Positions 1 to 15,337 of a stretch of 15,548 nucleotides of DNA are shown here, in pieces (within the stretch, counting starts at the first letter, position 1; each line of letters begins with the position of its first letter). Location: positions 1-15,548 of the forward strand of contig JBMFIM010000017.1 in assembly GCA_049976305.1 (NCBI GenBank), written 5' to 3'. Both the position numbers and the translations under genes were made by a program. This stretch comes from Candidatus Micrarchaeia archaeon (lineage in GTDB: Archaea; Micrarchaeota; Micrarchaeia; Micrarchaeales; CABMGC01). The notes under the pieces were generated by a model. It did not search any database and was not told where the DNA came from. It saw only the letters and a list, made by a program, of their open reading frames with translations.

Positions 1-681
1 GCTGGCGCATCTGCTGTGCTAAACAACCTGTTCCAGCTCAACTACTCGCTGAGCGGCACAAGGAACAACATGACCTACACCTCAACTCAGGGCCACTCGC
101 TCAATGCACAAGTAGGCTTCAGGACTGAGAAAGGCAGCAAGATTGCAAGCATATCACCAAGCCAGATAACAGTTGACTTGGCAAAGAACGTTGACATGCT
201 GCAGTTCGTGGTTGGGCCAGTAAACACAACAGTGAGCACTGCAAAGAAGGTCGTTGGACCATTTGGCATAGGCCAGGCAACAAACATACCTAACGTTACA
301 ATTGCCAATGTAACAGCACAGTGCAACTTCACAAGCTCAGGCTGCACAGTAGTTGGCTTGAACAACTTGACCGCAGTGCCAAGCGTAAGCCAGGCAGTAA
401 CGCCTGTAAAGCTCAACACTGCAGCAACACCGCTAGTAGTGCTCGACACGAACGCCAACCCGGCAGAGACATTGATATTAATTGGAAGCAAATATGTAAA
501 CAGCATCGCAGCACAAATCTTTGCTCAGAACCCAAGCCTTGACAGCAGCTTCGGTCCAGGATCAGTGATAGTGCAGGCCTTTGGCAGCAACCGCATACTG
601 GTAGCTGGCTACTACGCCAACGAGACAGTGCAGGCAGGCAACGAGTTCATAAACGACCTGCTCAGCGCTGCAAGCTCATAA
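1..681 (+). CDS. S-layer protein, C-terminal part (5'-truncated by window edge)
   Basis: Frame is open from base 1. Sequence is Asn/Thr/Ser/Val-rich and ends in motifs typical of archaeal S-layer C-terminal domains (VVLD..., LILIGSKYVN, ILVAGY.A.ET..A). Frequent AAC/TTC codons and a strong downstream terminator suggest high expression. Confidence 0.8.
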   Translation, partial: AGASAVLNNLFQLNYSLSGTRNNMTYTSTQGHSLNAQVGFRTEKGSKIASISPSQITVDLAKNVDMLQFVVGPVNTTVSTAKKVVGPFGIGQATNIPNVTIANVTAQCNFTSSGCTVVGLNNLTAVPSVSQAVTPVKLNTAATPLVVLDTNANPAETLILIGSKYVNSIAAQIFAQNPSLDSSFGPGSVIVQAFGSNRILVAGYYANETVQAGNEFINDLLSAASS

Positions 682-688
682 ACAGATT

Positions 689-715
689 AGGAAGCCTTCG
701 GCTTCCTTTTTGTTT
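689..715 (+). terminator. Hairpin plus T-tract terminator of the S-layer gene
   Basis: AGGAAGCC-TTC-GGCTTCCT forms a perfect 8-bp stem (689-707). It runs into TTTTTGTTT (707-715) and begins 7 nt after the TAA stop. Confidence 0.8.
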
Positions 716-772
716 GAATTTTGTATTTCTTCGCTTTTAATTCTCTGCTCACAGCATTCTCTTTCTTTCTGC

Positions 773-795
773 AAAAGGTATAAAAACTTTTTAAT
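773..795 (+). promoter_or_regulatory. Probable BRE/TATA promoter of the 815 gene (leaderless spacing)
   Basis: AAAAGGTATAAAAACTTTTTAAT contains TATA-like boxes about 20-35 nt upstream of ATG 815. No SD motif is present. Confidence 0.5.
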
Positions 796-814
796 CGATA
801 AGAAAATCGATTTA

Positions 815-2866
815 ATGGCTTATTGGCGACCTGCAGGCATTTTGCTGCTCTTGCTCCCCATACTTTTCGTTACTGCAAGCGCATATTCGTCAACGCAGCT
901 CAATACGCTGCTTGTATCATACAACATCTCACCCGGGCTTATCGCCCAGCTAACCCCTGTTTATCTCAATGTTTCAGGCGTAGAGTATATTCTCCTCTAC
1001 AACCACACTATGCCATATTTCCTTGTCAATGCCTCCTCTGACTCTTTCGTGATTAATGCCAGCAGCATTTACTCAGTAATCCACTCGTATATTTTCAACC
1101 AGTCATACGCCTCTCTTAATTTCTCGCAGCTTGCAAAGCAAATGAAAGCATACCAGGCCTCTTCATCCGGGCCAATTGACAACTGCCTGCATGAAACAGG
1201 GCTTGACACTGGATTGACTTGCAACCTAAGCAACTACTGCTACGCTTGCCAGGTTGTGCCTGTCTGCAAGGCAGTGCTCGACAACACTTCAGGCCCGACA
1301 GGCGTTTTGGGCCAAGGCATCATGGAGTTTGAAAAGCAATACAATGCGCTAAACAAGAGCTACTCTGCCTTCTATGCTTCAACTAGCAACGTAACAAAGG
1401 CCAACGTGCTGCAGAAGATAGCCCAGCTTATGAGCTCTTTTGCAAACATAACTAACCTTACCACTACCTTGCACGAAAACCCTATATTCCCTCCCGAGAA
1501 TGTGACGCCTAACATGCTTGCTACCTGCACAAGCTACTATACGCCAACAAGCGCACCTTGGTATTGCACTGCTTTAGGCTTTTGCGAAGCCTTGACCTTT
1601 AACACTACCTTGCTTGGCAAGATGCAGGACGAAATAAATGCAATAAACTCTACCCCGCTTAGCAACGAGCAAATATTCTCGCTTGCCGAGCGCCTGGCTT
1701 CTACAGAGCTTGGTTACGTATTGCCGGTGCTTTCAAAGCAGCACTATGCGCTTCTGCAGCATATTCTCAACACGCAGCTTTCTAACTACTCCACGCTGAT
1801 AAGCAGCGTAAGCTCTTTGCTTTCGCATGTGAACAACTCAACCTTGCTAAATTCCACGCTCAATTTGGAGAAAGCATATGCAAGCCTTCAAAGCAATTAC
1901 CTTACAGAGAACATAACCCAGCAGGCTCAGATTGTAGCTAGCATGCTCAATAACGTGTCTGAAATGTATGCAAAGCTCAACGCAACCTATGCACACCTTC
2001 TTAGCCTAGCCGACAACAACACTGCAGCGCTCATAAAGGCAGAGCTAACTAATCCTTATCAGCAGGGCTTGGCAAGCTTGGCGTTTCTGCAGCTTAGCCT
2101 AAACAAGCAGCTTAGCGGCAGCATTAGCAATGTAAGCAGCTTTGAGCTAATGCTTTCAAACCTTTCATCGAAGCTTAAACACTACCAGACAAGCAGCTAT
2201 ACGCTTGCAGACTTTGCTAGAGGGATAGATGGCGCGTTTGCAAGGCCCATAGTATACTCTATGCATCTTCCTTATGCAAGCGCCAAGGCTTTGGCGCCAT
2301 TTATAGGCTCTCTTCTTGCTTTGATAATAGGAATTGTGGTGCTTGGTGCACTTGCATTTGTAAGATCTTACCTAAAGCTAAAGAGGAAGATTGTGGTTAA
2401 TGAAAAGACAAGAAGAAATTGGCTTTTGCTTTTTGCAATAGTTGGTGTTGGTATAATACTCTATTACGCTGCGTCATTGTCTTTGCTTGAATATGCCAAT
2501 GCGCATGCAAGCCCATCTGCTTTCTACGCTTCGCTGCAGAATGCAAAGGATGTTATCATAGCTATAAACGGCACGCCTACGCTCAACGCCTATTCCTGTG
2601 CAAGCAGCATAGGAGCCAGGCTTGGCAGCATGGGCAAGCATGCAGTGCTTATTTCCTTAGCGAACGGCCTTTGCAAGGTAGGCAACGCGACAGTGGGCGA
2701 GGACTATTGCCTCAACTACTACTCTGCGCTCAATGATCCGATAATAATGCTGAGCAATTCTAGCCAAGCAGGCATAGGCATATACTCTCTGTATGGCACT
2801 CTGCTCAGCTATTCGGGCAATGCGACAGTGATGCAGGCATGCTATCCTTACTTGCTTCTGAATTAG
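815..2866 (+). CDS. Large uncharacterised membrane-anchored surface glycoprotein (683 aa)
   Basis: ATG 815 gives a clean signal peptide (MAYWRPAGILLLLLPILFVTASA). It is followed by an 8-Cys region, a long helical stretch, two hydrophobic segments separated by a basic loop (RSYLKLKRKIVVNEKTRRN) and a C-terminal 4-Cys domain. About 30 N-x-S/T sequons by hand count. Confidence 0.8.
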   Translation: MAYWRPAGILLLLLPILFVTASAYSSTQLNTLLVSYNISPGLIAQLTPVYLNVSGVEYILLYNHTMPYFLVNASSDSFVINASSIYSVIHSYIFNQSYASLNFSQLAKQMKAYQASSSGPIDNCLHETGLDTGLTCNLSNYCYACQVVPVCKAVLDNTSGPTGVLGQGIMEFEKQYNALNKSYSAFYASTSNVTKANVLQKIAQLMSSFANITNLTTTLHENPIFPPENVTPNMLATCTSYYTPTSAPWYCTALGFCEALTFNTTLLGKMQDEINAINSTPLSNEQIFSLAERLASTELGYVLPVLSKQHYALLQHILNTQLSNYSTLISSVSSLLSHVNNSTLLNSTLNLEKAYASLQSNYLTENITQQAQIVASMLNNVSEMYAKLNATYAHLLSLADNNTAALIKAELTNPYQQGLASLAFLQLSLNKQLSGSISNVSSFELMLSNLSSKLKHYQTSSYTLADFARGIDGAFARPIVYSMHLPYASAKALAPFIGSLLALIIGIVVLGALAFVRSYLKLKRKIVVNEKTRRNWLLLFAIVGVGIILYYAASLSLLEYANAHASPSAFYASLQNAKDVIIAINGTPTLNAYSCASSIGARLGSMGKHAVLISLANGLCKVGNATVGEDYCLNYYSALNDPIIMLSNSSQAGIGIYSLYGTLLSYSGNATVMQACYPYLLLN

Positions 2867-2874
2867 GCGAGTAA

Positions 2875-3417
2875 ATGCAGAAAGAGAATGAGTCAAAGCA
2901 AATAAAGCAGCAAGAGAAGAAGAATGAGAAAAAGAGCGCAGCAATGAGCAAGCGCGACATTTACCTGGTTGCAGTTGTAATAGTTGTTGGCATCGCTGTA
3001 TTTGCAACCCTAGCCCTGCTTCTTTCAAAGCCTGGAGTTCCTTTCTCTACATTCAAGAGCAACTTTTATGCGGCGCCCAAGTCTGCCATAGTCGTGGTCT
3101 TTAGGAACCAATCAGAATTTATTTCGGAATCAGCATGCTATCCTTTGCTTAGAGAGGCAATACACAAAAATCTAAATAGTGTAAGCCTGTTCCTTATCAA
3201 TGCCTCAAATTCCACATGCCTTTTCTCGCCTAATGTAACGCCCATGACTATTGTTTACAAGCCTGCCAGCTATTGCCTCAGCATTGCAAGCTCAGAGCCC
3301 AGCATATTCCTAAACTACAGCAGCATAAATGCAAGCATAGTGACCGCTTACAGGCTTACAATACTTGGCAATGCGGAATACATGCAGCAGTGCCCTATAG
3401 CAGTTGATATGTCGTGA
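2875..3417 (+). CDS. Uncharacterised single-pass (N-in) membrane protein with a 4-Cys external domain
   Basis: K/E/Q-rich N-terminus, then one hydrophobic helix (IYLVAVVIVVGIAVFATLALLL), then a domain with 4 Cys and several sequons. Starts 8 nt after the previous stop; alternative start is ATG 2944. Confidence 0.8.
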   Translation: MQKENESKQIKQQEKKNEKKSAAMSKRDIYLVAVVIVVGIAVFATLALLLSKPGVPFSTFKSNFYAAPKSAIVVVFRNQSEFISESACYPLLREAIHKNLNSVSLFLINASNSTCLFSPNVTPMTIVYKPASYCLSIASSEPSIFLNYSSINASIVTAYRLTILGNAEYMQQCPIAVDMS

Positions 3418-3421
3418 GTGC

Positions 3422-3931
3422 ATGGAGTCTGTAATTGCAAAAAGGCCTGCAATTCTTCTGGAGCAGGGCCAGGGGCGAATCACTTATTATGCAGAATACA
3501 CTGTTGATGGAGTCAAGATTCCTGTGGAGCCAGTATTCGCGCCAGAGAGAATAGTAGTATTGGGTCAAAACATGCTTGCAAATGGAAGGAGCATAGTGTA
3601 TGTTGTGCCAAGACTTTTTTCCTCGGATCCCAACGTTCAAGGCTACGCCTTTACTGTCAGGCTTATCTCTGAAGAAAGGCAAGGAAAAGAGTTTACCGCT
3701 GTAGTCGAGCCTTTGGAAGCCATCTACTCTGCAGAAGAAACCTCGCCAAAGGTATTGCTTGTGGAAAAGAACGCAAGAAACGTAGTCGGTTTGAAAGAGC
3801 TCCTTAAAATGCCTGAGATAGTCGTAATGAGAAAAACAGTAGCAGATACTCTAAGGCTACAGCCCGGAGACTTCTTCGCACTCATAAGGACCTATGGAGA
3901 GCCTGTTAAAGAAATAGAGGATCAAGTATAG
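3422..3931 (+). CDS. Hypothetical cytoplasmic protein, possible double-psi/swapped-hairpin barrel motif at the C-terminus
   Basis: ATG 3422 lies 4 nt after the previous stop. The protein has no TM segment. C-terminal IVVMRKTVADTLRLQPGDFFALI resembles the helix-GD-box of CDC48-N/AbrB-type barrels. Confidence 0.65.
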   Translation: MESVIAKRPAILLEQGQGRITYYAEYTVDGVKIPVEPVFAPERIVVLGQNMLANGRSIVYVVPRLFSSDPNVQGYAFTVRLISEERQGKEFTAVVEPLEAIYSAEETSPKVLLVEKNARNVVGLKELLKMPEIVVMRKTVADTLRLQPGDFFALIRTYGEPVKEIEDQV

Positions 3932-6151: not shown

Positions 6152-7234
6152 CTATATGTATCCAGCGCCTGGGGAAGGCAGGCTCTGCCTTTCTACAAGC
6201 CCTTTGCTTTCTAAGTATGCATAAGCCGAGCTGTACCGCATGTCAAAATATCTTAGCCCTATTTTGCCTACTAAGACCTTGTCAAGCATCTCTACTTTGC
6301 TTTCAGCATATTTGAACTTGCTTAGCGCATTTATCTCCTTTTCAAGCTCGTCTTTATCCTGAAAAGCTAAGATGCCGAAATAGCCAAGGGGCGAGAGCAT
6401 GCGGGCCATGTAAACATATGGGCACACCTCGCTTTTCACCATTTTCAAGTACCATTTCTCTTTTTCCTTCTCAAAACCGCTTCCCTTTAATGTGAGCTCC
6501 AAGAAGGCAATGCTATACTGCGAGATATTGGCGATATAGTAGGTTACCCATTTTAGCACCCTAGTCCTTATGAGCCTGTCATAGGCGTATAACATTTGAG
6601 TAGAACCCTGGCCGTACTCAGCACCTATCTCGGAAAACGGCGCCCTGCCTCTCTTTGTAAACCCTAGAAGTAGGTTCTTGTAAGAATCGAATAGCTTGAA
6701 CGAATTTATCATATCTGTGTCAATAGGGAAGAACCCCCATTCAGGAAAAATCCGTATAACGCTTAGGGTAAATTGATACTTGCTTAGCTTGCTCTGTATT
6801 CCTCTAACAATGTAGCTTATGTCATCGTAGGTTCTTGCAAGCACATAGCCATATGCCTTCTTTGACTTTGTCGTGGCTAAGAACTGGACATATTTTTCTT
6901 TTGTACTTGTTGCATTGGTAAGCTCTTCATACTTAGGCATCGATTCAAAATCCAGCTTGAGCAGGTATTCGCTGAAGCCTGCGTTTGCGACGATCTCGCT
7001 TGCCTCGCCAATTATGCCGCGCTTAGTCTGCTGCCTTGCCTGCTTTGCAAACTCCATAAGCCAAAGATTCTCAAAATTTATCTCAGGCGCGAAAGTAAGT
7101 CCTTCTCTGCTAGACAGCTCTTCAAGGTCTTTGCTTACTTCTTCGGGCTTCATCCCAAATTTCTGCGCCAGCTCCTGTATTGTTGCGCGGCCGTTCACGC
7201 TCAAAAATTTCAGCAGTGCGGCATTATCGCCCAT
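6152..7234 (-). CDS. Tandem (duplicated) Lrp/AsnC-type wHTH transcriptional regulator
   Basis: Two AsnC-like HTH segments (LLKFLSVNGRATIQELAQKFG; LLLGFTKRGRAPFSEIGAEYG...AYDRLIRTRVLK), each followed by an alpha/beta RAM-like region. ATG 7234 lies about 30 nt below a TATA box. Confidence 0.7.
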   Translation of the reverse strand: MGDNAALLKFLSVNGRATIQELAQKFGMKPEEVSKDLEELSSREGLTFAPEINFENLWLMEFAKQARQQTKRGIIGEASEIVANAGFSEYLLKLDFESMPKYEELTNATSTKEKYVQFLATTKSKKAYGYVLARTYDDISYIVRGIQSKLSKYQFTLSVIRIFPEWGFFPIDTDMINSFKLFDSYKNLLLGFTKRGRAPFSEIGAEYGQGSTQMLYAYDRLIRTRVLKWVTYYIANISQYSIAFLELTLKGSGFEKEKEKWYLKMVKSEVCPYVYMARMLSPLGYFGILAFQDKDELEKEINALSKFKYAESKVEMLDKVLVGKIGLRYFDMRYSSAYAYLESKGLVERQSLPSPGAGYI

Positions 7235-7264
7235 GAGGTCGCCTAAGTTAAATAGCAAATAAAG

Positions 7265-7293: not shown

Positions 7294-9486
7294 TCAGTCT
7301 AGGAAGTCCTCAGGTTTCGGTGGCTCTTCAGGTATTCCTTTCCTCTTCCTTATTTCCCTTACTACCTTATCTTGCAGTTCAGCAGGGAGCTTTTCATAGC
7401 CAGCGTATTCCATGTACCATATAGCCCTTCCGCTCGTTATGCTCCTAAGCTCGTTTGAGAAACCTTTTATTACTTCTGCAACAGGCATCTTTGCCTTTAT
7501 TGTTACTTCTTCGCCTTCCTGGTCTATGCTTTCTATGTGGCCCCTTCTTCCTTGAAGCATGTTTATGACATCGTTAAGGTACTCAGATGGTATGCTTATG
7601 GTGAATATCTGCTTAGGCTCAAGCAAGATATCGTGTGCTAAAAGCATGCCTGCATTTATAGGCCTTCTTATTGCAGGGATTATCTGTGCAGGACCTCTGT
7701 GTACAGGGTCTTCATGTATTGTTGCATCGGTTATGAGGACCTTTATGCCTGTGCATTTTTCCCTAGCTAGAGGCCCGTCATCCATAGCTTCTTCAAATCC
7801 GTCTATAAGCAGCTCCATTACCTCATTCATGTACTGAACGCCGTGCGTAGCATCTACAAGTATGCTGGAGTTCTTTATGTCGACGCAGTTTTTAGCCTGT
7901 TCCCTTGGCAAGCCTGCATTTACAAGCTTCTCAACAGCGTCCTTTCCTTTTGGCCTGCCTTCATTTATTACTCCTTGCTCTATCGCCTCAACAACACTCT
8001 TTTCCAAAGGCTCTACGTTTATGTAAAACTTCGAGTGCCTGTTGGGCGCTTTTCCTTCTATATTCTCGACTTTGCCTTCTATGGTCTCTCTGTAAACTAC
8101 AATAGGATCGCTTGTTATTATCGGTATTTTGTACTCGTCCCTGAGCTTCGTCTCTATTATTTCTAGGTGAAGCTCTCCAAGACCTCTTATTATGTGCTCT
8201 CCAGTCTCTTGGTTTATCTCTGCTTTGAAAGTTGGGTCTTCTTTTGAAAGCTCCCTTAACGCTTCTATAAGTCTCACAGTGTCTTTGGTCTCCTTAGCCT
8301 CTATTGCCTTCGCTACTACCGGCGGTGAATAATGCCTTATCTCTTCAAAAGGCGTTATCCCTGTTTCGCTCAGCGTGTCGCCTACAGAAACGTCTTTCAA
8401 GCCGATTATAGCAACAATGTTTCCTGCAGGTATTGCTTCTACAGGCACTCTATCAGGGCCCATGTAGAGTGCAACCTGCTGAATCTTTTGCTTGCCTGAA
8501 AGGCCACTGACATAAACTTCAACGCCTTTTCTTGCAGTGCCTGAAAATACCCTGCCTATTGCTACCTCGCCTGCATGCTGGTCGTATGTTATGCTGAAAA
8601 CTGCTATGTTAAGGCTTTTTGTAGGGTCTGCATTTAGCATTGCCTGCCCTTCTTCGCTGTTGAGGTCGCCGTGCCAAATGTTTGGAAGCCTGTATGACTG
8701 GGCTTCTCTAGGGTTCGGCAAATGTTCTACTACCATGTTCAGTATAGCTTCGTCAATTGGTGCTATTTCTCTAAGCTTTTCCATATTGCCTTCAGCAGTA
8801 AGCTTGAAAATGTCTTTGAAAGTGACCTTATACTTTTCCATTATCCTGCTGGAAATAGCCCATCGCTCATAAGCTGAGCCAAAAGCAACATTGCCAGAAG
8901 CCACGTTAATCTTCCACTTCTCAGCCAGCTCTTCGCCGCCATACCTTACCATAAGCTTGTTTACATCATTTATCAAGCTAAGAAATCGTTCATATGTTTG
9001 CTCCGGAGTGAGCTTGAGCTCCGTCAATAACCTGTCCACCTTATTTACAAACAGAACAGGCTTTGCCTTCTCCTTGAATGCCTGCCTAAGAACTGTTTCT
9101 GTCTGCGGCATTATGCCTTCAACAGGATCTATTACCAATATTACACCGTCTACGGCCCTCATCGACCTAGTTACATGGCCGCTGAAGTCCACGTGGCCTG
9201 GTGTGTCGATTAGGTTTATTATGTAATCCTTTCCGCCGTAGTCGAAAGCAAGGGAGATGTTTGCAGATTTGATTGTAAGCCTCCTTTCCTTTTCGATTTC
9301 GTCGTAGTTGGTGTAAAGTATTTCGCCTGCTACGGTCTTTGATATTATGCCGGCCTTTGCAAGCAGGGCGTCTGTAAGTGTTGTCTTGCCATGATGGACA
9401 TGCGCTATTATTGCTACATTTCTCACCCTTGTTATGTCTTGCATGATCTTTACTACTTCCTCAGCCACATACTCTTTTCTTACCAT
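7294..9486 (-). CDS. fusA: Translation elongation factor aEF-2
   Basis: Motifs AHVHHGKTT, INLIDTPGHVDF, NKVD, EDPTF and GELHLE, plus the archaeal diphthamide loop HEDPVHRGPAQ. 730 aa; SD GGTGGAG at 9491-9497. Confidence 0.98.
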   Translation of the reverse strand: MVRKEYVAEEVVKIMQDITRVRNVAIIAHVHHGKTTLTDALLAKAGIISKTVAGEILYTNYDEIEKERRLTIKSANISLAFDYGGKDYIINLIDTPGHVDFSGHVTRSMRAVDGVILVIDPVEGIMPQTETVLRQAFKEKAKPVLFVNKVDRLLTELKLTPEQTYERFLSLINDVNKLMVRYGGEELAEKWKINVASGNVAFGSAYERWAISSRIMEKYKVTFKDIFKLTAEGNMEKLREIAPIDEAILNMVVEHLPNPREAQSYRLPNIWHGDLNSEEGQAMLNADPTKSLNIAVFSITYDQHAGEVAIGRVFSGTARKGVEVYVSGLSGKQKIQQVALYMGPDRVPVEAIPAGNIVAIIGLKDVSVGDTLSETGITPFEEIRHYSPPVVAKAIEAKETKDTVRLIEALRELSKEDPTFKAEINQETGEHIIRGLGELHLEIIETKLRDEYKIPIITSDPIVVYRETIEGKVENIEGKAPNRHSKFYINVEPLEKSVVEAIEQGVINEGRPKGKDAVEKLVNAGLPREQAKNCVDIKNSSILVDATHGVQYMNEVMELLIDGFEEAMDDGPLAREKCTGIKVLITDATIHEDPVHRGPAQIIPAIRRPINAGMLLAHDILLEPKQIFTISIPSEYLNDVINMLQGRRGHIESIDQEGEEVTIKAKMPVAEVIKGFSNELRSITSGRAIWYMEYAGYEKLPAELQDKVVREIRKRKGIPEEPPKPEDFLD

Positions 9487-9497
9487 AATTCTCCACC

Positions 9498-10217
9498 TTA
9501 TCTTGCGCTTCTTGCAATCCTTTCAATCTCTATTTTCTTCTTTATTGCATAGCTGTTCGGGTCATTGTTTGCAGCAAGAATGAGCTCTTCGCTAAGTGCT
9601 TCCTTGAGCGTCTTCCTGCTCTGGAAGGCGTTTGTCAACGCAGCAAGCGCAATATTTCTTAGGGCAACATCAAGCCTTCTCGCCGCGCTTATCCCTACCG
9701 CGACGTTATAGTTTATGCCTCCGTAGCGTATGCGCGTAGTGTCTTCGATTGGTGCAGAGTTCTGTATTGCGTCAACAAGCACCTGGACGGGATTCTTGCC
9801 TGTCTTCTTTGCAACGTCGTCAAAAGCTTCTTCCACTATTCTCATGAGCTTTAGTTTCTTGCCCTGCAGCCTGCCCTCTGTTCTTATAACTCTGCCGCCT
9901 ATCTTTTGGCCTGTGCCTCCCCTCATCATTTTGTTTATTAGCCTCTCCACTATGTTTGCCTTTGTTACGAAATGCGCCTTGTCTTTTCTCCTCCCAAAGC
10001 TATTCAAATTCTCCTTTGGTGTTAAAACTATATAGTTTGCAAGGCTAATGTCTTCAACCACAACGTCCTTTGTGCTGTATTTTCCAAACAACAGCTGTTC
10101 TTCGCTGCCTATTTCTTCTTTCTTTTGAACCTTCTTGACTCTCTTTGCTTTCTTCTCTACTTCTGCCTCTTTCTTTGCTTCTTCTTGCACCTTCTCTGTT
10201 TTCTCTGCCTCTGCCAT
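9498..10217 (-). CDS. rps7: 30S ribosomal protein uS7
   Basis: Motifs IVERLINKMM, NPVQVLVDAIQNSAP.E..TRI.YGG, RRLDVALR and EIERIARSAR. Lies between uS12 and EF-2. Confidence 0.97.
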   Translation of the reverse strand: MAEAEKTEKVQEEAKKEAEVEKKAKRVKKVQKKEEIGSEEQLLFGKYSTKDVVVEDISLANYIVLTPKENLNSFGRRKDKAHFVTKANIVERLINKMMRGGTGQKIGGRVIRTEGRLQGKKLKLMRIVEEAFDDVAKKTGKNPVQVLVDAIQNSAPIEDTTRIRYGGINYNVAVGISAARRLDVALRNIALAALTNAFQSRKTLKEALSEELILAANNDPNSYAIKKKIEIERIARSAR

Positions 10218-10221
10218 TTCA

Positions 10222-10650
10222 TTACCTCTTAGGCTTCTCCTTTCTTCCCTTTACAATTTCGTAAAGGTCTACGCCGTTGACAGCTACTACCCTATATTTT
10301 AGTCCGGGTATGCTGCCCATTTGGCCTCTCTGGGATCCTCCCATGCCTTGTATAAGCACCTCATCGTGCTCCTCAATGAACCCTATGGCGCCATCGTAAG
10401 GCACATATGCACCTACTACCTTTCCGTTCTTTGTAAGCTGCACCCTAACGCATTTTATCTGGCCACTGTGAGGTTGCTTCTGCTGAAGGCTGAACTTCTG
10501 CAAAACAAGCGCCCTTGCCATAGGCACAGTTCCCATTGGGTCATACTTCTGCTTAAGCTTGAAGAACTTTCTCTTCCACCATTTCTTGAGCATCCTTTCC
10601 CTGTGCCTCTTTTTTACAAGCTTAAGAGCAGCAAATTCTCCCTTCGCCAA
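10222..10650 (-). CDS. rps12: 30S ribosomal protein uS12 (archaeal S23 type)
   Basis: Motifs GEFAA.KL, KCVRVQL.KNGK, FIEEHDEV, IPG.KYRVV.VNGV and C-terminal KEKP. TTG start with AGGTG SD. Confidence 0.97.
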   Translation of the reverse strand: MAKGEFAALKLVKKRHRERMLKKWWKRKFFKLKQKYDPMGTVPMARALVLQKFSLQQKQPHSGQIKCVRVQLTKNGKVVGAYVPYDGAIGFIEEHDEVLIQGMGGSQRGQMGSIPGLKYRVVAVNGVDLYEIVKGRKEKPKR

Positions 10651-10658
10651 TTAAACAC

Positions 10659-10955
10659 CTAGTATTTTTCGTTAAGTATGTTTGATGTGCCAGGGTCTAT
10701 TATTGCAAGGCTGCTTACGCTGTAAGGTTTGCCGCACACCCTGCCTAGCTCCATAGCGTTGCCGTTGAAGTTTATGACCCTTATGCCTGCAAGCTTGCAG
10801 GCGTGCAGTATGTCGTCAGCCTCTTTCTTTCCTTTGTTTGCCATTACTACTGCCTTTGCCTTGTCTTCTAGTACTGCCTTTAGGGTTTCCTTAAAGCCAA
10901 AGCTCACGCTGCCTGTATCTACTGCCAGCCTCAAATCGCTGTTCAAGTCAGGCAT
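10659..10955 (-). CDS. rpl30e: 50S ribosomal protein eL30
   Basis: Motifs LRLAVDTG.V.FG.KETLK, ELGRVCGKPYSVS.LAIIDPG.SNI. Confidence 0.95.
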   Translation of the reverse strand: MPDLNSDLRLAVDTGSVSFGFKETLKAVLEDKAKAVVMANKGKKEADDILHACKLAGIRVINFNGNAMELGRVCGKPYSVSSLAIIDPGTSNILNEKY

Positions 10956-10973
10956 CAAAAAACCTGAGCAAAA

Positions 10974-11036: not shown

Positions 11037-12056
11037 TCAAGGCGTGTGGATTATAATTTGGTTGCAGCCTGCTGTGTCTATGCCTCCTTTGAATGCAAGC
11101 GTAATATAGCCAATCCAAGGAATTTTGGCGATTATGTAGCCCAGGACCTCATTGCCGTTTGGCGGGTAATTGCCAAATTGTATGTCAAAAGCTTGGTTGT
11201 TGTCGCCTTTTGTAAGAAGGTAGTATTGGTTTCCAACCTTTATGGCAGCCACAAGCCTGTGGACTATGTTGCCAGAGAACGTATCCTGCGGGATTGTGGA
11301 ATAGACAATTATGGGCTCGGTATAGTTGTCGGTAACAGTTGTATTGGCTATTTTGACAGAGTTTGTATAAACAATTTGGTATCTTGTATTGTTTATGAGA
11401 ACGTTGCCTATCGTGTAGGAGTATTTTATGAGGTTTCTTTGCTGGCTTGCGTTTTCAACAAAGCATCTTGCAAAGTTGTAGTGCTCATTTTCATAGGCAT
11501 AGATAGAGAGGCATTTGGTGTTGTACAGGCCTATGCCATACTTCTCTCCAGGCTCTACTATGTATGAGATATTTGATTTGTTGTTGCCAAAGTAGGCGTA
11601 GAATGCAAGGAATTCGTTGCTTATGTTGGCGAGCATGGAGTAATAGGCTTGCGGGCTTACGTTGACTATTGGTATGTGGTTGCTTATCAGGAAAGAGGTC
11701 ATGTTTGATATGTGCTTAAGCACTACAACGTCTCCTATTCTAAGTGTAGGGAGCATGCTGCAGCTGGGCACAACGTCAAGGGGCGAGGATGTGCCGAGGA
11801 GCAAAATTGCTACAATCCAAACTGCAAAAATCACTCCCAGGGTTTCAAGCACCTCGACAGCGGTAGCCCTCAAGCCCAGTACCTTTATATCCCGCTTAGT
11901 CTCAACTATAAGCAATGCTGCAAACACCACAACAAAGGCTATGCTGAATATGTAGTTTTTGGTGAACGCATAGGCTATTATCAGCAGTAAGAGAAGAACG
12001 TATAGTGCCTTCTCATCATTTTGCATCTTTCTTTGTTTTCTTCCCTTCTGCCTCAT
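11037..12056 (-). CDS. Signal peptidase I (S26B/Sec11-type) with large insertion
   Basis: N-terminal TM helices, PLDVVPSCSMLPTLRIGD (catalytic Ser box), IVHR, TKGDNN..D and G......IPWIGY. Start is either 12056 (ATGA overlap with the smc stop) or 12026. Confidence 0.88.
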   Translation of the reverse strand: MRQKGRKQRKMQNDEKALYVLLLLLIIAYAFTKNYIFSIAFVVVFAALLIVETKRDIKVLGLRATAVEVLETLGVIFAVWIVAILLLGTSSPLDVVPSCSMLPTLRIGDVVVLKHISNMTSFLISNHIPIVNVSPQAYYSMLANISNEFLAFYAYFGNNKSNISYIVEPGEKYGIGLYNTKCLSIYAYENEHYNFARCFVENASQQRNLIKYSYTIGNVLINNTRYQIVYTNSVKIANTTVTDNYTEPIIVYSTIPQDTFSGNIVHRLVAAIKVGNQYYLLTKGDNNQAFDIQFGNYPPNGNEVLGYIIAKIPWIGYITLAFKGGIDTAGCNQIIIHTP

Positions 12057-15000
12057 GCTCCTGCCTTAGGCTTTACGGCGCTTACCTCAATGCCTACTAC
12101 CTGAGACGCGCCATTGTTCCTAACAACCCCTATGGCAACATCAGCGCCCAGAACTGTTGCGTCGTTGTGGCTTACAACTATGAACTGCGCATTTTTAGAA
12201 AGCTCCTTTATGAGTTGTGAAAGCTTCTTCGAATTCTCCTTATCAAGCGCAGCGTCTATCTCGTCAAACACGTATATGCTCGAAGGCCTGTAGGCGTGTA
12301 TTGCAAAAAGGAGCGTAAGTGAAAGAAGGGCTTTTTCTCCTCCTGAGAGGGCGCTGACCCTGTTTGCAACACTTATGTTTAGCCCGCCCTCGAAAGGATT
12401 GTTGGGGTTTTCAAGTACAAGCTTCGCCTTCCAAGGGAATATATAGCCAAGCATGTTCTCGAAATTCTTGCTTATCTCATTGAACGCGCTCATGAAAGCA
12501 TCAAGCTTCTTCTTGTCTATCTCCTCTATCATGCTTATTACTGCCTGCCTTTCAGTAGCAAGGGTATCTAGCTTTGCCTGCGCCTCGTCGACCTCTTTTT
12601 TCTTAGCCTCGTAAACCTCAGGCGCCTTCATGTTTACGTTGCCCAGTGCAGAGATCTTGCCGTTTACTAAGCTTGCTTCTTTTTCCATCTCCTCTATGCT
12701 CATGCCCTTTACGGGCTCCATTGCCTCGTAAGCGCCCAGCTCAGCCTTCAAGTCGCTAAGCCTTACTTCAAGCTGGCTCTTCTTTACCTTTGCCTCTTCC
12801 ATTTTCTCCTCTACCTGCTTGGCTTCTGAGCCCAGCATGCCTGTTTGCTTGCTGATCTCAACGGCACTTGCCTCTATGGCGTTTATTTGTTCATAGAGTC
12901 CTTTCGCCTTCTCGCTTGCGCTCTTCGTCTTTTCCTCAACCTCAGCCTTCTGCTTTGCCAATTCCTCTTTGAGCTTAGCCTGCTTTTCGGCCTCTTGCCT
13001 GAGCTTTCCAAGCTCTTCGTCAAGCTTCGCGCTTTGCGAGTTATAGTCTGCAAGGGCCTTTTCAAGCATCTCCATTTCCTTCCTAAGCTCTGCAAGCCTT
13101 ATCTTCTTCTCCTCTATTTCCTTAGCCTCCTTGCTAGCTTGCGATGCGTAGCCAGAGTTAAGCTCCTTTGTTTTGTCATCTAGCTCCTTTCCTAACAGCT
13201 CGCTTTTTGTTACAAGCTCTTCTTTTTTCTTCTCCAGCTCCGCAATCTTGCCCTTCTCTTCTTCGAGCTGCCTAACTAGCAGCGCAAACTTGTCCTCTAG
13301 CTCCTTTTTCCTTTTTTCCAGCTTTTCCAAGCTCTCTTTAGCTTCTTGCATGCGAGCCTCTGCTGAAGCAAGCTCCTTCCTGGCTTTGAATGCAAGCTCA
13401 TCTTTCTCTTTTAGTGCAGCAGAATACTCCTTGCTCTGCCTTTCAGCATTTTCTATTTCCCTGCCGAGCACAGCGGGGCTAAGGCTCGGCTTAGCTCCAC
13501 CACTTACAAGCCCGCTGCTTTCTACAATGTCTCCATCAATGGTAACGTATCTTGCCTTTCCTACGCCCTTTGCCTTTGCTTCTTCTATGCTACCTACTAG
13601 GAACGTGCCGCCGAACACAAACTCTATCGCCTTTGCAAACTTGCTGTCATACTGTATTACGCTTGTAAGAGGCTTTGCATCAACTTTCGCCTGCCTCTCG
13701 ACGTTTATGTCACGCAGAGGTATAAATGTAGCTCTGCCTATGCTATTGCTTTTCAAATAGTCTATGATCTTTTCTGCAACATCTATCGACTCTACAACAA
13801 GATAGTTGAGCCTGTTTCCAGCAGCAGCTTCAACAGCCACAGCGTATTCTGGGCTATAGGTGCAGATGTCAGAAAGTACGCCGTAGAAGCCATCTTCTTC
13901 TCCAAACAACTTTCTTATTTTTTCAGCTATTCCTTTGTCTTTTGGCGCAGCCAAAGCTCTTTTTTCCTTGAGCTCAAGGAGCCTGGTATTCGCAGCATCA
14001 AGCCTTTTGCTTATTTCTGCAATTTCATTGTTGAGCAAGTCTAGCTTTTTGCTTGCTTCTTCCATCGCCTTTGTGCTCTCCTCCAGGCTCTGCCTTTTCT
14101 CGTTTATCTCCTTTTCAAGCTCATCGTGTTCAGTGTTTATGCCTATAAGCTGGTTGTCTAGCAGAGACTTGTTTCCTCTGTGTTTTGCAAGCTCAAGCTC
14201 TACTTTGCTAAGCTCTCCCTGAACAAGCCTCAGTGCGTCTTGGAGGTCGCTTATGTTTTCCGCTAGTGCTTCTATTCCTCCTTTTTGCTGCACATCAGCA
14301 TTGCCAAGTGTACGCTTGAGCTTTTCGGCTTCGCCCATATCCTCTTCGATCTTCTGCTTTGTCTCCTCTATGCTCTTCGCTAGTTGCTGCTTCTGCGTTT
14401 CTTTCTCGCTTATTTGTTTAGCCGTGCTGTCAATCTTTGCATCTATCTCTGCAATCTTTCCAAGAAGGCTTTGCAATAGGGCATTTGTAGCGTTGGAGGC
14501 CTTTGAGCTTTCCTCAAGTTGTTGCGTAAGCTGCTTCCTCTTAGCTTCAAGCTCATTCATCTGCTTGGTAAGCTCTGCAAGCCTTTTTCCCGTTTCTTCA
14601 CGCTTTTTTGTAAGCTCAGCTAGATCCTTTTCAAAAGACTCTATAGCAGAGCCGGTAATTGAAAGCTTGGCAAGCAGTATGCTGTAGTTCAGCTGTTTGA
14701 GCCTTTTCGAAAGCTGCTCGTATTGCTGTGCCATGTCTTTTTCCTTTTCAAGCTCTTTCAAGAACGCAAGCTTTTCCTGGAATATGCCCTGCATCTCGCT
14801 TAGCTTCATGTTTACCTTTTCAAGCTCGTTGAGGGCCTCGGCCTTTTTAAGCTCGTATTCCTTAATGCCTGCGACAGCATCGATAAGCTCCCTTCTTTCC
14901 TTGGCGTTTAGCTCTACAAACCTTCCTACTTCGCCTTGCGCCACTGTGTTTCTCTCATCAGCATAAACCCCGTGCTTGCCCAATACCTCAATTACCTCCT

Positions 15001-15337
15001 GCCTTGTCATGCGCTTGCCGTTTAGCCTGTAGATGCTTTTGCCATCCGCCCTTAGCCCCCTTACAAGCTCAATGTGTTCGTCGCCATCAAGCTCAAGCTT
15101 GACATAGGCTTTGCTTGTTGACCTTTTTTCTCCTGTAACTGTTATCAAATCCTCTAGCTTGTTGGCCCTTAGCCTGTGCAGCGAGTTTTCCCCAAGGCAA
15201 AACAGCAGTGCGTCGCATATGTTGCTTTTCCCAGAGCCATTCGGCCCAACAATTGTGTTGAAGCCTTTGCTGAGAAGCAGGTTTGCATGCTTGAAAGACT
15301 TGAAGTGGTCTAGCGTGACCGATTTTATGTAAAGCAT
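12053..15337 (-). CDS. smc: Chromosome segregation ATPase SMC
   Basis: FKSF, Walker A GPNGSGKSN, Q-loop VAQG, coiled coils, hinge (GFYG.LSD, GRATFIPL, VTIDGD...SG.VSGG), LG.VN.KA, signature LSGGEK, Walker B/D-loop FDEIDAALD, and QFIVVSH. Confidence 0.97.
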   Translation of the reverse strand: MLYIKSVTLDHFKSFKHANLLLSKGFNTIVGPNGSGKSNICDALLFCLGENSLHRLRANKLEDLITVTGEKRSTSKAYVKLELDGDEHIELVRGLRADGKSIYRLNGKRMTRQEVIEVLGKHGVYADERNTVAQGEVGRFVELNAKERRELIDAVAGIKEYELKKAEALNELEKVNMKLSEMQGIFQEKLAFLKELEKEKDMAQQYEQLSKRLKQLNYSILLAKLSITGSAIESFEKDLAELTKKREETGKRLAELTKQMNELEAKRKQLTQQLEESSKASNATNALLQSLLGKIAEIDAKIDSTAKQISEKETQKQQLAKSIEETKQKIEEDMGEAEKLKRTLGNADVQQKGGIEALAENISDLQDALRLVQGELSKVELELAKHRGNKSLLDNQLIGINTEHDELEKEINEKRQSLEESTKAMEEASKKLDLLNNEIAEISKRLDAANTRLLELKEKRALAAPKDKGIAEKIRKLFGEEDGFYGVLSDICTYSPEYAVAVEAAAGNRLNYLVVESIDVAEKIIDYLKSNSIGRATFIPLRDINVERQAKVDAKPLTSVIQYDSKFAKAIEFVFGGTFLVGSIEEAKAKGVGKARYVTIDGDIVESSGLVSGGAKPSLSPAVLGREIENAERQSKEYSAALKEKDELAFKARKELASAEARMQEAKESLEKLEKRKKELEDKFALLVRQLEEEKGKIAELEKKKEELVTKSELLGKELDDKTKELNSGYASQASKEAKEIEEKKIRLAELRKEMEMLEKALADYNSQSAKLDEELGKLRQEAEKQAKLKEELAKQKAEVEEKTKSASEKAKGLYEQINAIEASAVEISKQTGMLGSEAKQVEEKMEEAKVKKSQLEVRLSDLKAELGAYEAMEPVKGMSIEEMEKEASLVNGKISALGNVNMKAPEVYEAKKKEVDEAQAKLDTLATERQAVISMIEEIDKKKLDAFMSAFNEISKNFENMLGYIFPWKAKLVLENPNNPFEGGLNISVANRVSALSGGEKALLSLTLLFAIHAYRPSSIYVFDEIDAALDKENSKKLSQLIKELSKNAQFIVVSHNDATVLGADVAIGVVRNNGASQVVGIEVSAVKPKAGA

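Follow-up and report, generated by a model that had tools for sequence, protein, structure and literature searches.

A probable co-adapted replacement of the uS12 clamp on 16S helix 18 in Micrarchaeota and other DPANN archaea

The PNSA motif, R49 and D88 of ribosomal protein uS12 have been described as universally conserved, and the locus studied here raises the question of how a decoding centre is built when they are replaced. The window, i.e. the whole stretch of 15,548 nucleotides from a Candidatus Micrarchaeia archaeon, carries an rps12 gene in which an earlier note had read both decoding-centre loops as altered, with N>H and D>S replacements that were proposed to form a compensatory pair. 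The gene and its operon are arranged as follows.

10222..10650, minus strand: uS12 (rps12) gene, 142 aa, TTG start, single copy (family profile, fold match, gene order)
10656..10660, minus strand: Shine-Dalgarno-like AGGTG, 5 nt before the uS12 TTG and overlapping the eL30 stop (direct reading of the sequence)
10659..10958, minus strand: eL30, operon neighbour upstream of uS12 (profile match)
9498..10217, minus strand: uS7, operon neighbour downstream of uS12, used as an independent tree marker (profile match)
7294..9486, minus strand: aEF-2, third gene downstream (profile match)

The gene order was eL30-uS12-uS7-aEF2, and the protein passed the TIGR00982 profile over its full length (166.8 bits, cut-off 140.2) and scored 180.8 bits against NF003254, under the cut-off of 196. 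The uS12 fold was confirmed by a model with a pLDDT of 79.6, for which the top 50 Foldseek matches were all ribosome chains with probability 1.00. This AlphaFold model, of the protein only and without rRNA, had a pLDDT below 50 at residues 106–110 in the second loop. The nearest relatives by similarity were titled Candidatus Micrarchaeota. Elsewhere in the window, a 368-aa ORF directly behind aEF-2 (6152-7258, minus strand) had no NCBIfam match and looks, from its translation, like a double helix-turn-helix Lrp/AsnC-type regulator; an NCBIfam match was also absent for a 175-aa ORF (3404-3931, plus strand). Sequence reading gave an S-layer-like C-terminal fragment (16-681, plus strand), a 718-aa membrane protein (710-2866, plus strand) and an SMC-like ATPase (12053-15337, minus strand), and a weak match pointed to a signal-peptidase-I-like protein that carries a long insertion (11037-12056, minus strand).

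For comparison, 355 uS12 sequences were read. They were not drawn at random and comprise 160 of 295 Micrarchaeota matches, 69 of 81 from Iainarchaeota, 71 of 78 from an Aenigmarchaeota-like order, 21 of 21 from a Nanoarchaeales-like order and 34 from other archaea. The Aenigmarchaeota-like label rests on a cluster member whose loop is identical, and the Nanoarchaeales-like order, within the Nanobdellota sample, was tentatively so named for its place in the tree and a known primer sequence. Genes with an intein-split or broken uS12 were left out of the counts (G357, G406, G412, G454 and G462).

The probability that the altered codons are an artefact of sequencing or assembly, or belong to a pseudogene next to a canonical copy, is negligible. 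A second canonical rps12, a possibility raised in the earlier note, was looked for in the genome (93.7% complete) and none was found; uS12 is present in one copy. A public gene with 99% identity differed by 23 synonymous and 1 non-synonymous changes and had the same four key codons. Contigs from four public runs (from at most two studies, one run perhaps being the source) showed no difference inside codons 57, 61, 65 and 113 and differed beside them at third positions only, with one run not covering codon 113. The earlier note's view that the changes are not sequencing errors was borne out by this agreement. The same state was found in 160/160 phylum members, and R65 or D113 in 0/120 of the closest database proteins. 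Compared to four relatives, 61–65 synonymous and 9–20 non-synonymous codon differences pointed to purifying selection on uS12. The artefact and second-copy ideas were ruled out by the single copy, the agreeing contigs and the phylum-wide state.

In the canonical ribosome, D88, N45 and R49 make up one stable hydrogen-bond network between the two uS12 loops, in which the D88 carboxylate links N45 and R49 and thereby joins the PNSA loop to the PGVR loop, with both set against the 530 loop (PMC4224418). One K+ is shared by C518, G529, P45 and N46, and a second K+ is bound by C518, G530, P45 and the third codon nucleotide (PMC6555806; protein residues as numbered there). m7G527 lies next to D89, with G527 in a pocket; methylation of G527 affects the streptomycin response, and its loss is thought to favour an open, hyper-accurate form (PMC7550191). 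The residues of the window's uS12 were numbered by alignment to archaeal chains, and the E. coli numbers were taken from papers (57=P41, 58=K42, 60=P44, 61=N45, 63=A47, 65=R49, 113=D88, 115=P90). The changed positions are the following.

10480..10482, minus strand: Gln57, Ala in most archaea and P41 in E. coli; a long polar residue stands here whenever Arg65 is lost
10468..10470, minus strand: His61, E. coli N45 of PNSA and a K+ ligand together with 16S C518 (codon read; PMC6555806)
10462..10464, minus strand: Gly63, E. coli A47, a common archaeal variant found in 268/268 sequences without R65
10456..10458, minus strand: Ile65, E. coli R49 and human R67, the central arginine lost (PMC4224418, PMC6954397)
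10333..10335, minus strand: Ser106, a weaker member of the package, invariant in 160/160 Micrarchaeota
10312..10314, minus strand: Ser113, E. coli D88 (codon read)

The codon readings of the earlier note (KQPHSGQIK and MGSIPG) were exact, and both loops are altered: K58 (10479-10477), Q59, P60, H61 (CAC, 10470-10468), S62, G63 (GGC), Q64, I65 (ATA, 10458-10456) and K66 (10455-10453) in the first, and S113 (AGC, 10314-10312) within MGSIPG in the second. K58, P60, S62, K66, P115 and G116 (E. coli K42, P44, S46, K50, P90 and G91) are kept. The canonical N45-R49-D88 side-chain network is absent, with H61, I65 and S113 in its place. The A>G replacement that had been counted among the changes is nothing special, as solved structures of the Pyrococcus type have PNSG and G63 was found in 59/87 R65-keeping sequences; A47G was rejected as a special change. 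The most important replacement, R65>I, had been masked by writing the motif as AxRK, and Ala57>Gln had also been overlooked.

The residues at 57 and 113 went together with the arginine at 65. Where R65 was present (87/355), D113 was found in 87/87 and residue 57 was small (A in 84, S in 2, V in 1). Where R65 was absent (268/355), residue 57 was long and polar in 268/268 (Q 244, K 19, R 4, H 1) and D113 was lost in 264/268, but these counts overstate independence, as there are only 1–4 phylogenetically independent contrast pairs on supported branches. With 1–4 pairs the independent-contrast tests were underpowered and no pair could reach p<0.05. The four exceptions, which kept D113 without R65, all had R57 (two Aenigmarchaeota-like and two Nanoarchaeales-like). 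R57 with D113 amounts to the charge pair in a moved position, and nothing else speaks so strongly for a single site made up of 57, 65 and 113. Judged from the alignment, the strictly coupled set is 57/65/113 (E. coli 41/49/88), and residue 57 would be in contact with 65 and 113. K58, the equivalent of K42, was K or R in all 355.

The proposed compensatory pair of N>H and D>S stood in part. Some coupling between 61 and 113 was seen inside the window's order, where S61/H113 swaps occurred in 5 genomes, S61/R113 in 1 and N61/A113 in 5. The coupling was not strict, since H61 occurred with intact R65/D113 in 10/355 and N61 was kept with D113 lost in 9/355. On the loop-masked tree, position 61 changed 16 times, compared to 5, 5 and 6 times for 57, 65 and 113, and once R65 was gone it took the states H, S, A, Y, N and T. 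A strict H/S pairing was rejected on these counts (10 and 9 of 355; 16 vs 6 tree changes). Across archaea, columns 61 and 113 do not change only together, yet the changes are co-adapted.

The replacements are not peculiar to this genome and turned out to be a trait of the whole phylum. uS12 was found in 295/301 phylum genomes, and the 160 sequences that were read came from 25 families. R65 or D113 was kept in 0/160. The states at 61/65/113 were HIS in 106, HIC in 28, HVS in 8, NIA in 5, SIH in 4, NIC in 3, HLC in 2, and NIW, HTS, SIR and SVH in one each; Q57, G63 and S106 were found in 160/160 and H61 in 145/160. The 120 nearest database proteins matched the Micrarchaeota pattern. Among the best 150 representatives of 50%-identity clusters, 132 covered all three sites, and of these 126 had N/R/D, 4 differed from N/R/D at 61 alone, and 2 had H/I/S. 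The arginine was also lost in 16/69 Iainarchaeota, 71/71 of the Aenigmarchaeota-like order and 21/21 of the Nanoarchaeales-like order; R and D were kept in all 34 other archaea read. An 11-genome Iainarchaeota group with Q/H/M/S was nested among canonical relatives. A full-text literature search, which covered mainly the main texts of openly accessible papers, found no description of these substitutions in DPANN, and the replacement of the clamp is apparently undescribed within that scope. The main text of PMC8570412 made no mention of Micrarchaeota or DPANN and reported only K60R.

The history of the change was followed on three trees, from uS7 alone (245 rows), from loop-masked uS12 and from uS7 and masked uS12 joined (57 rows). 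In all three, Micrarchaeota, Iainarchaeota and the two other orders were separate from one another. The arginine-loss label changed 6 times on the best joined tree, with at least 3 changes forced by strongly supported branches (57 rows), although such counts do not separate gains from losses; part of DPANN may have inherited the neutral design from its ancestor, some lineages then reverting. A single clade of all genes without R65 was rejected (AU p=0.002; 44 rows, loops masked).

That rejection speaks against one origin followed by sideways spread, either through gene transfer among co-occurring DPANN or through co-conversion during homing of a uS12 intein, which we consider quite improbable. 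In favour of such spread, codon 67, where the intein inserts, is two codons away from position 65, both allele types carry inteins at C67, in several phyla, and an identical Q/H/I/S is found in Micrarchaeota, basal Iainarchaeota and a basal Aenigmarchaeota-like branch. However, loop-masked uS12 follows the phylum grouping of uS7, the nested Iainarchaeota allele, in the stretches between and after the loops, shares 78–80% identity with canonical Iainarchaeota but only 45–67% with other phyla, and the Nanoarchaeales-like order has different residues (K57/Y61). Transfer within Iainarchaeota may have taken place. Sideways spread concerns history and is compatible with the structural reading. Two related candidates were discarded: whole-gene transfer between phyla was not supported by the masked trees and the AU test, and escape from intein homing as a driver was rejected by the presence of inteins in both allele types. 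The intein itself is about 510 residues long and sits at Cys67 of canonical and rewired alleles (L402 of G357, G406, G454); intein-bearing uS12 was also seen in P0132, P0133, P0137, P0138 and P0143, and RefSeq names an intein in Caldivirga.

A remodelled decoding site had been proposed, and an inspection of 16S helices in the same genome suggested. The own-genome 16S was not found in the assembly with Rfam RF01959 or by blastn with a same-genus 16S; in relatives, changes were present in h18, h2/h27 and h44, in agreement with the proposal. In the window's family, G518 and A527 replaced C518 and G527 in 33/33 genomes that gave a match, one of them from the same genus, and from these family members we infer that the window's genome has G518/A527 as well. 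The sister family had A527 in 51/51 listed rRNA matches, with G518 in 47 and C518 in 4, the latter being the S61 genomes. In other Micrarchaeota families with the new protein, h18 was canonical in 35 genomes and changed at 518 alone in 43. Thus, the protein change would have preceded the rRNA change, because many Micrarchaeota families combine the new protein with a canonical or 518-only h18.

Both markers were available in 260 genomes, 201 without and 59 with R65. A527 was found in 81/201 without R65 and 0/59 with R65, and a base other than C at 518 in 120/201 vs 1/59, the single case being G518 with H61. The 201 divided into 72 with G518/A527, 44 with G518 only, 9 with A527 only, 4 with A518 and 72 with canonical C518/G527, and 58 of the 59 were canonical. 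The rRNA state also followed residue 61: S61 was found in 9/9 genomes with C518 and A527, and every genome with G518 had H, Y or N at 61 (117/117), G518 being found in 0/34 genomes with A, S or T there. A strict requirement of G518 for H61 was rejected by nine genomes with N61 and G518, all without R65. Four Aenigmarchaeota-like genomes with G518 and A527 had 16S and uS12 on the same contig, which excludes a binning error in those four. In Iainarchaeota, G518 was found in 4 genomes only, all with Q/H/I/S, and in the Nanobdellota sample C518/G527 was found in 127/128 genomes with an rRNA-type match, by 16S alone. Positions 522 and 527 pair in h18. In 9/9 Nanoarchaeales-like genomes with Y61, G518 and A527 occurred together and U522 restored pairing to A527; Micrarchaeales retained C522, resulting in a C-A apposition with A527.

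Several sequences were left out of these counts: the 23 f3 genomes, all missed by the h18 pattern owing to an insertion; G481 (A61 with G518 and A527), the 16S of which matches the Nanoarchaeales-like type; and second or non-rRNA pattern matches (G015, G111, G166, G718, G386, G455, G643, G504). The 16S fragments G481:C57, G718:C35 and G166:C110 match the h18 type of another lineage and are probably misbinned. The f3 insertion (L235-L238) is a hairpin of 28–31 nt that follows C526 and precedes G527/C528; it is probably an rRNA intron, with boundaries that permit G527 or A527 after splicing and a 3′ end that mimics the A527 form. In 11 Aenigmarchaeota-like 16S genes (e.g. G436, G445) the h18 pseudoknot strand had G524A, with Ala61 in 11/11, and G524A was found only with Ala61 uS12.

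The rest of the decoding centre was read in the family's full-length 16S, i.e. in relatives. G530, A1492, A1493 and A1408 were kept in 28/28. G18-C917 replaced C18-G917 in 29/29, and U1404-A1497 was found in 25/28. The U1406-U1495 pair was a Watson-Crick pair (C-G or G-C) in 17/28 family members, including the same-genus genome, and stayed U-U in 24/24 comparison genes. Among the family genes L102-L129, A1405-U1496 was found in 2 and A916 opposite C19 in 2, and about half carry 16S introns, with lengths near 2 kb. The main text of Noller 2022 (PMC9014874) does not name C518, G527 or U1406, and on its account these bases are not called universal here. The changed 16S bases are physical partners of the changed residues, given the K+ sites at C518 and the G527 pocket beside D89.

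Taken together, we find it probable that the uS12-helix 18 clamp of these archaea is a co-adapted, neutral second design, which later let the rRNA change. The two members of the Arg-Asp charge pair would have been lost together (R49>Ile, D88>Ser/Cys), with Gln at 41 occupying the vacated space and its hydrogen bonds and His at 45 filling the gap towards Ser88, a geometry suggested by the co-occurrence of these residues. Gly63 is likely to have been permissive beforehand. The replacement would date back to the Micrarchaeota ancestor or earlier, at a time when 16S h18 had kept its canonical bases. Once the base-specific side-chain contacts were lost, C518 and G527 would have been freed, changing repeatedly in step with residue 45; co-occurrence is what was observed, and the order from protein to rRNA is suggested by the nesting. 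The likely net outcome would be a 30S shoulder with its open/closed equilibrium shifted in either direction, and with it a modestly changed speed-accuracy setting and a changed aminoglycoside/streptomycin pocket, largely compensated. Decoding by the normal mechanism is expected, because G530, A1492, A1493, P44, S46 and K50 are kept. To our knowledge, archaea lack D88 methylthiolation. One methylthiotransferase-like radical SAM ORF was found in the own genome by motif only (C5:41301-42590), which we take to be most likely the tRNA enzyme, and Asp88 is absent. An altered modification, which had been offered as one outcome, is unlikely, as D88 methylthiolation is a bacterial RimO feature (Anton 2008).

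Relaxed selection in reduced symbiont genomes might instead have left a decayed clamp and an error-prone ribosome, through shared ancestry and patch-up substitutions. The affected lineages all belong to DPANN groups with small genomes, position 61 is found in many states after R65 loss, the h44 pair 1406-1495 exists in three states within the family, and at the same position human RPS23 R67K raises frameshifting and readthrough and lowers fidelity (Paolini 2017, via PMC6954397). We nevertheless judge decay unlikely, because the new state is near-invariant (Q57 and S106 in 160/160, H61 in 145/160) and the same residues recur in separate phyla. Moreover, the equally reduced Pacearchaeota-type archaea and 53/69 Iainarchaeota keep R and D, and 127/128 genomes of the Nanobdellota sample keep C518/G527. 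Escape from a natural inhibitor of the uS12/h18/h27/h44 pocket (streptomycin-like, an aminoglycoside or a host ribotoxin) is very improbable. It would fit the Watson-Crick replacement at the aminoglycoside-site pair U1406-U1495, the effect of G527 methylation on the streptomycin response (PMC7550191) and the fact that P41, N45 and P90 are streptomycin-dependence sites (Demirci 2013, PMC3884664). The classic resistance residue K42 (K58) nevertheless stays K/R in 355/355. Archaea are, in addition, generally insensitive to streptomycin already.

The K+ site at the third codon base also brings AUA decoding into view. The own genome has a tRNA-Ile with a UAU anticodon (G000:C2:37828-37903) and only two CAU tRNAs, and AUA is its main Ile codon (48 per 1000). 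TiaS, the agmatidine enzyme, was not found in it with PF08489 (genome 93.7% complete). In a set of 10 genomes and 4 control archaea, TiaS was found in 0/8 genomes without R65, 1/2 with R65 and 4/4 controls. The rewiring might then be an adaptation to the reading of AUA by an unmodified tRNA-Ile(UAU) after TiaS loss, with uS12 and C518 changed at the K+ site of the wobble position so as to tighten the rejection of U34-G on AUG. A precedent is the Mycoplasma mobile ribosome, which rejects AUG for tRNA-Ile(UAU), with S12 or 16S changes suggested (Taniguchi 2013, PMC3575796), and C518 and P44 bind K+ at the third codon base (PMC6555806). This adaptation is nonetheless improbable. tRNA-Ile(UAU) was also found in G359, G361 and G339, of which G361 and G339 have canonical N/R/D and a canonical h18; TiaS was not found in the canonical G347, and the TiaS comparison covers 10 genomes only. 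The rewiring is therefore not required for UAU decoding, and UAU decoding as a sufficient cause was rejected by G361 and G339. The UAU tRNA pattern had no match in 4/5 genomes without R65, and it also missed the intron-bearing tRNA of G339, so these blanks carry no weight. At most, the rewiring was a later refinement for UAU decoding in some lineages.

In its widest form the idea is that several DPANN lineages independently re-tuned the wobble check, with TiaS loss and tRNA-Ile(UAU) followed by a rebuilt uS12 clamp and then rebuilt C518 K+ sites. This is a long shot, as is the consequence that the re-tuned decoding centre would tell U-A and U-G pairs apart at the third base of the codon. If true, no structural basis for a change of wobble rules encoded in the ribosome would have been identified earlier, and four residues plus two bases would be a transplantable module.

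On the reading preferred here, a co-adapted neutral clamp, whole archaeal lineages have more than once replaced a network described as universally conserved, and they would offer a natural series of epistatic substitutions in protein and rRNA, right in the decoding core, in which C518 and G527 change in a fixed order. The role of D88 and its G527 pocket, the translation accuracy of reduced symbiotic archaea and the ribosomal rejection of U-G wobble become open to test. A primer mismatch in helix 18 of these archaea is known, and their h18 mismatches to common 16S primers would thereby be explained mechanistically.

Compared to canonical archaeal and eukaryotic uS12 (TIGR00982; Pyrococcus, Saccharolobus, Thermococcus; 4v6u_AN, 9fhl_N, 6skf_Ao), the window's protein is alike in family, fold, length and operon and shares K58, P60, S62, K66, G112, P115 and G116, and Pyrococcus already has PNSG. 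In contrast, 5/5 residue-aligned solved canonical chains keep N, R and D, all three of which are replaced here together with Ala57>Gln. In hyperthermophilic archaea, RPS23 K60R (Martinez-Miguel 2021, PMC8570412) is likewise a natural variation of the KQPNSA loop; it has a repeated origin and alters accuracy on transplantation. K60R is a single conservative change, whereas the window's uS12 keeps K58 and changes four other sites, with 16S changes in relatives. The human ribosomopathy RPS23 p.Arg67Lys (Paolini 2017, via PMC6954397) affects the same arginine (65 here) and impairs fidelity and biogenesis; R67K is uncompensated and harmful in humans, but Micrarchaeota have Ile with compensating changes, fixed in the phylum.

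Laboratory streptomycin-dependent rpsL mutants at P41, N45 and P90 (Demirci 2013, PMC3884664) lie in the same pocket and show second-site suppression in protein and rRNA. They keep R49 and D88, whereas the natural solution drops the charge pair, followed by h18 base changes and not C1490U. A side observation is that Trp115, the equivalent of P90W, which is streptomycin-dependent and distorts decoding in Thermus (PMC3884664), occurs naturally in 68/69 Iainarchaeota and 43/71 of the Aenigmarchaeota-like order (e.g. L303, L340); the Iainarchaeota 16S genes that were read also have A1405-U1496. Finally, the Mycoplasma mobile UAU system (Taniguchi 2013, PMC3575796) shares the absence of the C34-modifying enzyme, tRNA-Ile(UAU) and the need to reject AUG, but in the archaea studied here the link to the uS12 change is not one-to-one.
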